Position numbers and translations under genes: made by a program
Notes under the pieces: generated by a model
The model's input: only the letters and a program-made list of their open reading frames with translations
The model's database searches: none
Told to the model about the DNA's origin: nothing
Origin: Escherichia phage PSK2
Direction: 5' to 3' (one strand)
Length of the DNA: 43,322 nucleotides
Sequence record: PP541514.1
Part shown: one piece after another, positions 4,109 to 6,843 of the stretch
How positions within the stretch are numbered: position 1 is the stretch's first letter
Layout of the letters: each line of letters starts with the position of its first letter

Positions 4109-5809
4109 ATGCAAGAGACTGACAAAGTAACCGTAGATGCAAACGTACCTGCCTACGAGGGTTGGACCATCAAATTTCCAGAAGGGGCCAATGCTCTTCC
4201 ACTGAAGGATAGTATGTACTCTTCCGGGGATTACTGGTGCCAACTTCCCTACCTATCAACTCAAGGCCGTGCGCGCGTGCAAAGTAACAAAACCCGTGCG
4301 CTTTTGAATGGCTTTTATATGTTGTCAAGGGTGCTGCCGGGGTATATTGTAGCACTCGGCAACTTTACAGCTGCAGGAGAGGATTTGGGTGGGTATGTTG
4401 GGCCGCTGGGCACGGTTGATATTAGTGACACTCTCCTGCATAACCTCTTTGACTGTGTAGGTATCTGCGACCAAGCATTCGGTTTATCTAGCAGAACCTT
4501 CTATGATGGCCCTGACGTAGTTACAGAACGCGTAGTAGAAGCGGTCCAATACTTTACCGGATACAAGGTGCACAAACAGGCTATAGAGTTGTTCGAAGAG
4601 GCTATGCTAACACCTAATCACTACCTCCGGGCCAAGTATCTGCGCGGATATGCTCGTGGTGATGGGGACTACTGGGCCGCAACCTTGCTTATGCAGTTGC
4701 ACGGATTTGTGGTGTCTAGATTTGCAATCCCCCTGGGTTTTGGCTTCCGCAACGGTGAACCTGTAGTAATGCTGGGGCAGCCGCGACTGCACAAAGATTA
4801 TGCTGCAATTACAGAGTATCGCTGTGTAGAGATGCGCGTAGGTAAGTGGCTCGCTAACTATTACGGCGGCGGTGTAGACTTCCGGGAATGTATCGAAGAT
4901 CTCAAGGCTATGAATGTGGAGCCTACTACATATCTTTGTAAGACCGAGCGGGAGTGGTACGACGCGTACGAAAATGGCCCGCGTAGCTGCATGACCGGAT
5001 ACAACTTTGAGTATAGCCCGGTGCGTGTATATGCCACGACTAGTCACGGCTTGCCGGATAATGGGCTGCGCTTGTTCATCCAGTATACCGGTGAACTTTT
5101 TGGCGACGACTTTAAAGTGCACGCCCGCGCTATCGTTAACATCGAAACCAACGAATACGTCCGTGCATACGGAGATGCTGCGGACGCCATTCTACGTGCT
5201 AATGGGTATGAGTGCGATACAGACTGCTTAGGTGGCGCACTACTGACACGCATTCCGCACCCAGAGAATGAGGGTGCCGTGCTTATGCCGTACTTAGACG
5301 GGAATCAAGATGGGGTAGATGAAAAGGGGGATAACGCGTTCGTTATCTGCGACTGCTATGACTATGAAGCACAGGACGTTGACGGGTACATTTGGATTGA
5401 TGATGGTCGCAGTGCTTGTGCAGAGTGCGGGGGACGTTTCGACGAGGATGCCATGTACATAACTTGTGACGGTGGTTATGTATGCCCGCACTGCATCGGT
5501 GATACTTACGTACAGGTAGTAGGACGCAGCCGGGTATATCCAACATGGGATTGCTCGTGGTCTGACTACCATGATTCTTGGGTATTCGACTGTGACGTAG
5601 AACATTGTGCTGTAGAGGGTGTAGTGTATGATGAAGAGCCAATGGTGTGCGCACAAGGGTACAATGTTCTGAGTGGGCATGCCGAAGAACACCCCGTGCA
5701 CGGTATGATTCTCACGGAGTATGCTGCATCCGTATTGGATGAGCCTTACCTCGGCAACGAGGAAGCTAAAGAAGACAAAGAAGCTAACGCGGAACAGGAG
5801 GCAGCTTAA
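4109..5809 (+). CDS. Large early protein of unknown function (about 566 aa) with Cys-rich, zinc-ribbon-like C-terminal region and acidic tail
   Basis: ATG at 4109 preceded by GGAGA; same frame as track ORF 3815-5809, whose first 98 codons would overlap the upstream gene; Cys clusters CDCYDY, CAECGG, CDGGYVCPHC, DCDVEHC. Confidence 0.55.
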   Translation: MQETDKVTVDANVPAYEGWTIKFPEGANALPLKDSMYSSGDYWCQLPYLSTQGRARVQSNKTRALLNGFYMLSRVLPGYIVALGNFTAAGEDLGGYVGPLGTVDISDTLLHNLFDCVGICDQAFGLSSRTFYDGPDVVTERVVEAVQYFTGYKVHKQAIELFEEAMLTPNHYLRAKYLRGYARGDGDYWAATLLMQLHGFVVSRFAIPLGFGFRNGEPVVMLGQPRLHKDYAAITEYRCVEMRVGKWLANYYGGGVDFRECIEDLKAMNVEPTTYLCKTEREWYDAYENGPRSCMTGYNFEYSPVRVYATTSHGLPDNGLRLFIQYTGELFGDDFKVHARAIVNIETNEYVRAYGDAADAILRANGYECDTDCLGGALLTRIPHPENEGAVLMPYLDGNQDGVDEKGDNAFVICDCYDYEAQDVDGYIWIDDGRSACAECGGRFDEDAMYITCDGGYVCPHCIGDTYVQVVGRSRVYPTWDCSWSDYHDSWVFDCDVEHCAVEGVVYDEEPMVCAQGYNVLSGHAEEHPVHGMILTEYAASVLDEPYLGNEEAKEDKEANAEQEAA

Positions 5810-6843
5810 TGTATGGTGTTGACCTTAAACTACTGACAAAGATACTAACAACGCACCGACCTAGCTGGGGCAGTACCAAATGGTTTGAGCCTCTTCTTAG
5901 TGGTGCCCTTGCCAATGCAGAGCACTACGTTAGGGACGCGCACGGTAACTACTTTGTGCTTATCGGTGACTCTGAACAGAGTGACGTGGCGTTTACATCA
6001 CACCTAGACACAGTGGCCCGGCCCGGTAGCGCTGCCCCGGACATTGCAATTACTAACAAGGGCGTAATGTTCCTACGCAATCCGCAAGTAGCGGATTGTC
6101 TAGGTGCAGACTGTGGTGCCGGTATTTACCTGATGCTGGAGATGATTAAGCGGGGAGTACATGGACGTTACTGCTTCTTTGTGGATGAAGAGGTAGGTTG
6201 TGAGGGCAGCAGAGCATCAGCCAAGGACGATACTGGCTTCTGGACTGGGGTCAAGGCAATGATTAGCTTTGACCGCCGGGGTGATGGTATCATCACGCAT
6301 CAACGATACCAGCGTTGCTGTTCTGATACGTTCGCAAAAGAACTCGCGGCCCGGCTAGGGCGCACGGAAGCACACTTACAGAAAGGAGTGTACACTGACT
6401 CTGCCGAGTTCGTAAGTATTATCCCAGAGTGCACTAACGTAGGCGTAGGGTACATGCATGAGCATACACCAGACGAGGTGCTGGACTTAAATATACTTGG
6501 ACAAGTACTTGAGCGCGTATTACAAGCGGGTACGTTCAAGCACCTACCGATTGAGCGGGATCCTAAGGTAGTGGAGCCGGATGCGTGGTTGTCCTCCTCA
6601 GCGTACCCTTTTGTTACAGCGCTGGATATTCCCCCTGCAGAGGATCCGCATTTACTAGCAGCATTCAAGGAGGTGTCACAACTTTCTAAGCGGCAACTGA
6701 TTAGCTGGGTGTTGGACAACCCAGCAAGGGCGGCGGAGTACATCATGGTGTATTCTGACTATGGATTTAAAGACGAGCTGATTGAACTAGGCACCCGAGT
6801 CGTAGAGGACTGGGGTGGGTACGATAATATTGTGGAGGGTTGA
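5809..6843 (+). CDS. Putative zinc metallopeptidase (M20/M28/M42-like aminopeptidase fold)
   Basis: AGGAGG ribosome binding site; motifs SHLDTV, GADCGAG, VDEEVG, SFDRRG, YMHEH recall the His/Asp/Glu-Glu/Asp/His metal ligand pattern of these families; assigned by eye only. Confidence 0.45.
   Translation: MYGVDLKLLTKILTTHRPSWGSTKWFEPLLSGALANAEHYVRDAHGNYFVLIGDSEQSDVAFTSHLDTVARPGSAAPDIAITNKGVMFLRNPQVADCLGADCGAGIYLMLEMIKRGVHGRYCFFVDEEVGCEGSRASAKDDTGFWTGVKAMISFDRRGDGIITHQRYQRCCSDTFAKELAARLGRTEAHLQKGVYTDSAEFVSIIPECTNVGVGYMHEHTPDEVLDLNILGQVLERVLQAGTFKHLPIERDPKVVEPDAWLSSSAYPFVTALDIPPAEDPHLLAAFKEVSQLSKRQLISWVLDNPARAAEYIMVYSDYGFKDELIELGTRVVEDWGGYDNIVEG

Follow-up and report, generated by a model that had tools for sequence, protein, structure and literature searches.

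The peptidase gene and its translational block

The window analysed here is the whole 43,322-nucleotide stretch of Escherichia phage PSK2 (sequence record PP541514.1), which megablast and tblastn comparisons identified as essentially one complete Drulisvirus-type podophage genome (43.3 kb). The subject of this study is a gene for a putative zinc metallopeptidase that is located towards the left end of this genome, tightly joined to an upstream gene for a 664-amino-acid (aa) protein, here called the partner, and to a small downstream gene. The features of this block are as follows:

3815-5809, + strand: partner gene, 664 aa, PHROG 6980, at the KP34 gp10 position; its stop codon overlaps the peptidase ATG
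5794-5799, + strand: Shine-Dalgarno sequence AGGAGG, 7 nt 5' of the peptidase ATG, within the 3' end of the upstream gene
5809-6843, + strand: peptidase gene, predicted clan MH co-catalytic metallopeptidase, ortholog of KP34 gp11; a single ATG-to-TGA open reading frame (ORF) of 344 aa
6843-7301, + strand: small gene, ~151-152 aa, PHROG 4317, at the position of KP34 gp12, with a start codon overlapping or adjoining that of the peptidase stop

The A of the peptidase ATG is shared with the TAA stop of the 664-aa ORF (TAATG), the peptidase TGA and the ATG of the following ORF likewise overlap (TGATG), and a ribosome-binding site is annotated at the same place in phage Minorna. A preliminary description of this DNA, made from its sequence alone, had placed a putative zinc metallopeptidase gene, expressed before the replication genes, at 5809-6843 and had listed a series of motifs in it. 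A single long ORF of 344 aa was recovered at exactly these borders on the + strand, it does precede the genes for primase, helicase and DNA polymerase, and all of the motifs are present in the translation, namely SHLDTV (residues 64-69), GADCGAG (99-105), VDEEVG (125-130), SFDRRGDG (153-160) and YMHEH (215-219). This ORF is a real gene under strong purifying selection: the ratio of nonsynonymous to synonymous substitution rates (dN/dS, Nei-Gojobori) is 0.07 versus the Minorna ortholog and 0.05 versus that of SFN6B, at 86-89% nucleotide identity, PHROG 4191 is matched over its full length (E=8e-144; residues 4-343 versus profile positions 3-342 of 342), and 686 homologs were found at E<=1e-3 in an index of 5.8 billion proteins. 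At the nucleotide level the gene is 95.7% identical to its counterpart in Klebsiella phage Hope and 95.4% identical to that in E. coli phage IK_ECO1, and the same megablast and tblastn searches matched it in the Drulisvirus-type phages SFN6B, Minorna and KPV811 and in hundreds of KP34-like Klebsiella phages.

An intact predicted metal site of clan MH

The motif series had been read by eye as resembling the metal-ligand pattern of M20, M28 and M42 aminopeptidases, and at the level of the enzyme class this reading is borne out by a complete, invariant ligand set and by a clan MH fold. The residues H65, D67, D101, E127, E128, D155 and H219 are invariant in an alignment of 30 sequences and in 89 of 89 homologs, taken from phage records and IMG/VR contigs, down to ~32% identity. 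Since the IMG/VR loci were retrieved by patterns spanning the GADD, EE and TNxxVGY motifs, it is the conservation of H65, D155 and H219 alone that is independent of ascertainment. The predicted metal ligands are H65, D101 (bridging), E128, D155 and H219, with E127 as the predicted general base and D67 as the aspartate of the HxD motif. The proposal of YMHEH as a ligand motif is upheld for H219, which is invariant (89/89), but not for H217, which is variable (H in 29, S in 17, N in 14, and others). A further set of invariant residues is specific to the family (R156, Q165, S172, T196, D197, C208, N210, Y215 and E223), and these probably shape the substrate pocket.

Two hallmarks of clan MH were found in the peptidase: the alpha/beta fold of the catalytic domain, and the succession of ligands His, Asp (bridging), Glu, Asp/Glu and His, in which the ligand Glu comes directly after the general-base Glu. 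The catalytic domain covers approximately residues 1-250 and is followed by a low-confidence linker (260-276) and by a helical C-terminal extension (~280-344) that contains the segment NPARAAEYI. A search of Pfam did return a peptidase family, if marginally: Peptidase_M28 (PF04389) is the sole Pfam family above its gathering cutoff (23.0 versus 21.3 bits, E=7.5e-5), with only profile positions 8-128 of 193 being matched, other family members score 18.6-28.3 bits on the same model, and the precomputed M28 label is carried by only some homologs. Scores were below cutoff for Pfam M42 (PF05343; 12 versus 23.2 bits) and for the NCBIfam PepT-like model TIGR01883 (16.5 versus 274.25 bits). A profile built from 30 homologs matches the PepT-like M20 structures 3gb0 (E=1.8e-13) and 3rza (E=6.4e-12) and an M42 TET1 peptidase (E=1.9e-7), with the HxD, LGADD (GADD), EE and H-T motifs in register between the family profile and PepT-like 3gb0. 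PepT-like tripeptidases are the closest solved relatives of the peptidase, and the structural score for M28 is weaker than that for these relatives.

The spacing of the ligands adds to this picture. D155 and H219 (ligands 4 and 5) are 64 residues apart, and this whole stretch falls within strands and helices of the core domain, as in the single-domain M28 enzymes; the lid/dimerisation domain that M20 enzymes have between these ligands is absent, with ~34 residues of the peptidase standing versus ~146 of 3gb0 between aligned blocks. H65 and D101 (ligands 1 and 2) are separated by only 36 residues, and the PDZ-like domain of M42 enzymes is likewise absent; in PhTET2 about 114 residues separate these two ligands. 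Bona fide membership of M20 or M42 was rejected because the inserted domains that define these families are absent. The peptidase is thus assigned to clan MH and is ambiguous at family level: its architecture is closest to that of M28, its sequence and structure to those of PepT-like M20.

Size and spread of the family

The family is very large. A profile search returned, out of 1.84 billion, 8,280 representatives of 50%-identity clusters at E<=1e-3, 5,856 at E<=1e-10 and 2,595 at E<=1e-30, and at least 557 relatives were found in IMG/VR, on contigs ranging from ~40 kb to 476 kb. Matches among cultured phages include those of Klebsiella, Escherichia, Shigella, Vibrio (Maculvirus), Pectobacterium and Dickeya (Phimunavirus), Pseudomonas and Thermus (P23-45, gp56), together with large Bacillus phages. 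A pattern scan of 185,579 bacterial and archaeal species, with one genome per species, identified only 35 loci, of which the one examined, from Xanthobacter, proved to be a prophage that also has genes for a terminase and an integrase. Judging from these results, phages and prophages are the main carriers of the family among the loci examined. Some contigs hold two separate copies of the gene, among them IMGVR_UViG_3300032236_002285 (476 kb; loci L053 and L068) and IMGVR_UViG_3300042878_001826 (150 kb; L035 and L059), and in both cases each copy is of a long (364-440 aa) subtype without the partner.

A conserved pair with a zinc-ribbon partner

In the fetched loci, four neighbours per side were clustered from the ORFs called, and the dominant neighbour proved to be a homolog of the 664-aa protein, which BLAST clustering placed directly upstream (-1) and in the same orientation at 43 loci, 26 of them outside Drulisvirus. 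With a family hidden Markov model the partner was found adjacent and on the same strand in 59 of 89 phage or IMG/VR loci and adjacent in 21 of the 35 prophage loci of bacterial genomes, which amounts to 80 of 124 loci overall, usually just 5' of the primase gene; a primase or primase-helicase is encoded 1-4 genes 3' of the pair in 36 loci. Partner homologs are also found upstream of the peptidase in Vibrio phage HA7 (Maculvirus, E=1e-38) and Pectobacterium phage Zenivior (Phimunavirus, E=2e-8). In two contigs of metagenome-assembled genomes the order is swapped, with the peptidase first and the partner second, and yet the genes remain adjacent (L093 33-1783, L094 283-2635), and one Mesorhizobium locus contains two partner-peptidase pairs a few kb apart (L101 4625-6909 and 8688-11374).

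The partner possesses a conserved core (S391-C392-M393, P402, Y406, R438, Y452, L477, P492-Y493-x-D495 and G524), which is followed by a CxxC...CxxC zinc ribbon (C535, C538, C557, C560) and then by an acidic C-terminal tail. Its N-terminal part is the least conserved, alignment columns 1-110 being mostly gaps across lineages. No fusion was found, as none of 384 retrieved proteins carries both partner and peptidase domains, and ten unusually long family members gave only marginal M28 matches, with no extra domain. The helical C-terminal extension of the peptidase contains a motif, [YHNFW]P...[AS]..[LIM], that is present in 55 of 70 paired versus 2 of 29 unpaired peptidases and in ~1.3% of shuffled tails; in the window protein it takes the form NPARAAEYI, at about residues 313-321. 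The association of this motif with the presence of the partner gives p=2e-11 in Fisher's test, a value that is overstated as the sequences are phylogenetically related.

Peptidases without the partner mostly belong to a longer subtype (median 391 versus 344 aa), which is encoded on phage contigs of 100-476 kb and has different neighbours; they include a 380-440 aa subtype as well as gp56 of Thermus phage P23-45. The latter (L002 4941-5825) is a 294-aa protein with 34% identity over the catalytic domain, which is annotated as a hypothetical protein and is located among unannotated genes; no partner homolog was detected at its locus. The partner-less loci L005 and L008, on metagenomic contigs of 100-200 kb, possess a conserved neighbourhood of their own, with an ORF of ~72 aa on the opposite strand at position +1, a ~320-aa protein with no Pfam match at +2 and a PhoH-like ATPase at +3, and with genes for NUDIX, Dam and S-adenosylmethionine (AdoMet) decarboxylase proteins nearby.

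Position ahead of the replication genes

The left end of the window consists of small ORFs, followed by the 664-aa ORF, the peptidase and the ~151-aa ORF, in a gene order that is phiKMV/KP34-like and not that of T7. The preliminary description had regarded a peptidase gene in this position as atypical for T7-like phages; it is true that the gene is absent from T7, but it is typical of this genus and of related genera. The small downstream protein is retained in Drulisvirus and in Pectobacterium Phimunavirus, where the gene at the same position in Zenivior matches it at E=2e-16. It corresponds only to positions 206-357 of the 455-position PHROG 4317 profile, and its conserved part is the C-terminal segment LQLxHDLRRMAMxIKxKEK. 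Downstream of the block the following genes were located:

7500-8288, + strand: DNA primase (Toprim), start of the replication module, preceded by the partner-peptidase cassette
8488-9768: DnaB-like helicase, replication module
10127-12511: DNA polymerase, followed by phosphoesterase and exonuclease genes
13313-14326, + strand: metallo-phosphoesterase, PHROG 221 (E=9e-113), calcineurin-like according to the Minorna annotation
19223-21691, + strand: single-subunit RNA polymerase, 3' of the DNA-replication genes and followed by structural genes and terminase

Since the RNA polymerase gene is located so far downstream, the left arm, including the peptidase block, must be transcribed, at least initially, by the host RNA polymerase. 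Sigma-70 promoters have been predicted at the left end of KP34-like genomes (PMC4411677). In positions 1-10500 of the window, the numbers of promoter and terminator predictions do not exceed the shuffled expectation, no internal regulatory signal is assignable to the peptidase, and no convincing terminator splits the peptidase block. The best sigma-70-like promoter of the left arm, and the one signal to stand out, is located at 1522-1550 (+; TTGACA-17-TATAGT, 11/12 match), with a terminator-like hairpin (14-bp stem and T-run) 5' of it at 1345-1379 (+). Two other observations concern neighbouring genes: the metallo-phosphoesterase, 3' of the DNA polymerase gene, is a second metal-dependent hydrolase in the replication block, and a 191-aa protein of the left arm (2096-2671, +; PHROG 5277) gave sub-threshold matches to LapG-like cysteine protease (E=0.014) and DndB (E=0.099), which are probably noise.

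Proposed role and alternative explanations

The explanation preferred here is that of a cytoplasmic clan MH di-metal exopeptidase which acts with, or on, its partner, and as a whole this is judged to have a little better than an even chance of being correct. Its parts differ in strength: the peptidase is very probably an active clan MH di-metal hydrolase, and a functional link with the partner is fairly probable. By analogy with characterised clan MH enzymes, and with a geometry taken from alignment, D101 would bridge two metal ions, of which one would be held by H65 and D155 and the other by E128 and H219, and E127 would serve as the general base that activates a metal-bridged water for attack on the scissile amide. 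The protein is a stripped-down form of such enzymes, consisting of a single catalytic domain and a short helical C-terminal extension, without the lid of M20 or the PDZ-like domain of M42. Its gene is translationally coupled to those of the partner and the small protein, in a block located directly before the genes for primase, helicase and DNA polymerase, and is expressed from the left-arm transcript that, judging from the genome layout, the host RNA polymerase must make; a cytoplasmic location is likely because there is no N-terminal hydrophobic segment. The activity would be that of an exopeptidase of aminopeptidase or tripeptidase type, and the partner might, rather tentatively, dock on the C-terminal helix of the peptidase and supply substrate selection in the way the lid does in M20 enzymes. 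In a more ambitious and unlikely form of this proposal, the partner and the lid-less peptidase would be a dedicated two-component phage system, made just before replication, in which the partner acts as the specificity or targeting subunit docking on the C-terminal helix and the peptidase trims or destroys one particular target in the host, whether a protein, a peptide or a molecule of defence or signalling. Neither the peptidase nor its two neighbours, the partner and the small downstream protein, matched any PADLOC-DB model at E<=0.01.

Several points weigh against the preferred explanation. About one third of family members occur without the partner, which indicates that the enzyme can work on its own, and the correlation between the C-terminal motif and the partner may be partly phylogenetic, with the paired genes possibly constituting one clade. 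Moreover, searches of Pfam, NCBIfam, PADLOC and PDB with partner sequences and profiles (the window protein and ten diverse homologs) revealed no recognisable fold or family, the only matches being noise-level hits of zinc-finger and LIM models to the CxxC ribbon, and the literature yielded genome annotations only, with no functional study of any family member.

The absence of the partner from a third of the family is also what would be expected if the peptidase were a stand-alone, broad-specificity tri- or aminopeptidase of PepT-like type, which recycles host peptides for phage protein synthesis and is adjacent to the partner merely through shared timing. This explanation, which is considered unlikely, agrees with the PepT-like identity of the closest solved relatives, and an open, lid-less active site would presumably accept many peptides; it is at odds with the maintenance of the pair across very divergent phages and prophages, even with inverted order, and with the existence of a partner-linked C-terminal motif. 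Furthermore, the gain from a generic peptidase is unclear given that PepT, PepA, PepB and PepN are already abundant in host cells. The lid-less architecture is, on the other hand, an argument against a small-molecule amidohydrolase of the DapE, ArgE, carboxypeptidase G2 or acylase type, whose substrate would be an N-acyl amino acid, a precursor of the cell wall or a host signalling metabolite: these M20 enzymes need the lid/dimerisation domain for substrate binding and catalysis, the NCBIfam equivalogs are unmatched (the best being PepT-like with 16.5 versus 274 bits), and such a role is rather less likely still.

Translational coupling and strict adjacency could also reflect a dedicated processing enzyme, for which the partner or another phage protein is the substrate and which trims a terminus to activate or mature it, particularly as M28 and M42 aminopeptidases can act on protein N-termini. 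The partner N-terminus is poorly conserved, which argues against a conserved N-terminal cleavage site, and this possibility is regarded as improbable. That the protein is a scaffold devoid of catalysis, or a mononuclear derivative of the M28 fold resembling glutaminyl cyclase, is essentially excluded: pseudo-enzymes and cyclases lose part of the ligand and general-base set, whereas here 89 of 89 homologs retain every one of the five ligands as well as the general-base Glu. Cell-wall peptidases are common in phages, and in T7 the zinc amidase gp3.5 is encoded just 5' of the primase-helicase, an analogy that is positional only; a lysis or virion-associated peptidoglycan peptidase can nevertheless be dismissed almost entirely, considering that the N-terminus has neither a signal peptide nor a hydrophobic segment, that the gene is located in the left-arm, replication-proximal block rather than in the late lysis and structural region, and that no relationship exists between the fold and known families of endolysin peptidases.

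Returning to an exopeptidase that acts with or on its partner, the residual interest of this gene resides in a very large phage family with an intact catalytic site under strong purifying selection, accompanied by a partner that is just as conserved and has no recognisable fold. Were the pair to act on a host protein or a defence signal, it would constitute a new type of takeover module, and a genuine two-component system would represent a widespread and so far unrecognised module of host takeover or counter-defence, spread across phage lineages that number in the thousands and range from podophages of 40 kb to temperate prophages. Drulisviruses are leading phages for Klebsiella therapy, so that the role of one of their core pre-replication enzymes is also of some practical value.

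Comparison with known systems

A zinc peptidase gene near the left end adds nothing new by itself, since orthologs have been called 'putative peptidase' ever since the KP34 genome was published, and the gene is already known as an annotated core gene of KP34-like Klebsiella and E. coli phages. GenBank labels of orthologs include 'peptidase', 'putative peptidase', 'putative metallopeptidase', 'putative peptidase family M28' and 'peptidase M28-domain containing/Zn-dependent exopeptidase superfamily protein', and the InterPro entry IPR007484, used in one published annotation, is that of peptidase M28. In the description of the proposed genus, KP34p11 was listed as a 'putative peptidase' among the core genes, between the core hypotheticals KP34p10 and KP34p12 (Eriksson et al. 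2015, PMC4411677), and in PhiM1-like Pectobacterium phages a peptidase (IPR007484) located before the primase was the sole early-region ORF with an assignable function (Buttimer et al. 2018, PMC6115819).

Compared with characterised enzymes, the peptidase shares with the M28 aminopeptidases (the Aeromonas/Vibrio proteolyticus aminopeptidase AAP, 1rtq, and the Streptomyces griseus aminopeptidase SGAP, 1cp7) a single-domain architecture, the H-D-E-D-H ligands and the EE general base. It differs from the M42 TET, PepA and FrvX aminopeptidases (2cf4, 1y0r, 1ylo), which possess a PDZ-like dimerisation domain that is absent in the phage protein, and from the PepT-like M20 tripeptidases (3gb0, 3rza; E. 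coli/Salmonella PepT, 1fno/1vix), with which it has only 23% identity and whose lid/dimerisation domain of ~110 residues it lacks, possessing a C-terminal helical extension instead. With respect to the KP34 gp11 type (PHROG 4191, pVOG VOG5332 'putative peptidase', of Drulisvirus, Phimunavirus and Maculvirus), of which it is an ortholog, there is no substantive difference, this being the same gene in a close relative: Drulisvirus proteins are 82-98% identical to it in amino acids, and their genes occupy the same slot before the primase, flanked by gp10 and gp12. Its near-constant pairing with an uncharacterised zinc-ribbon partner gene is all that is new.

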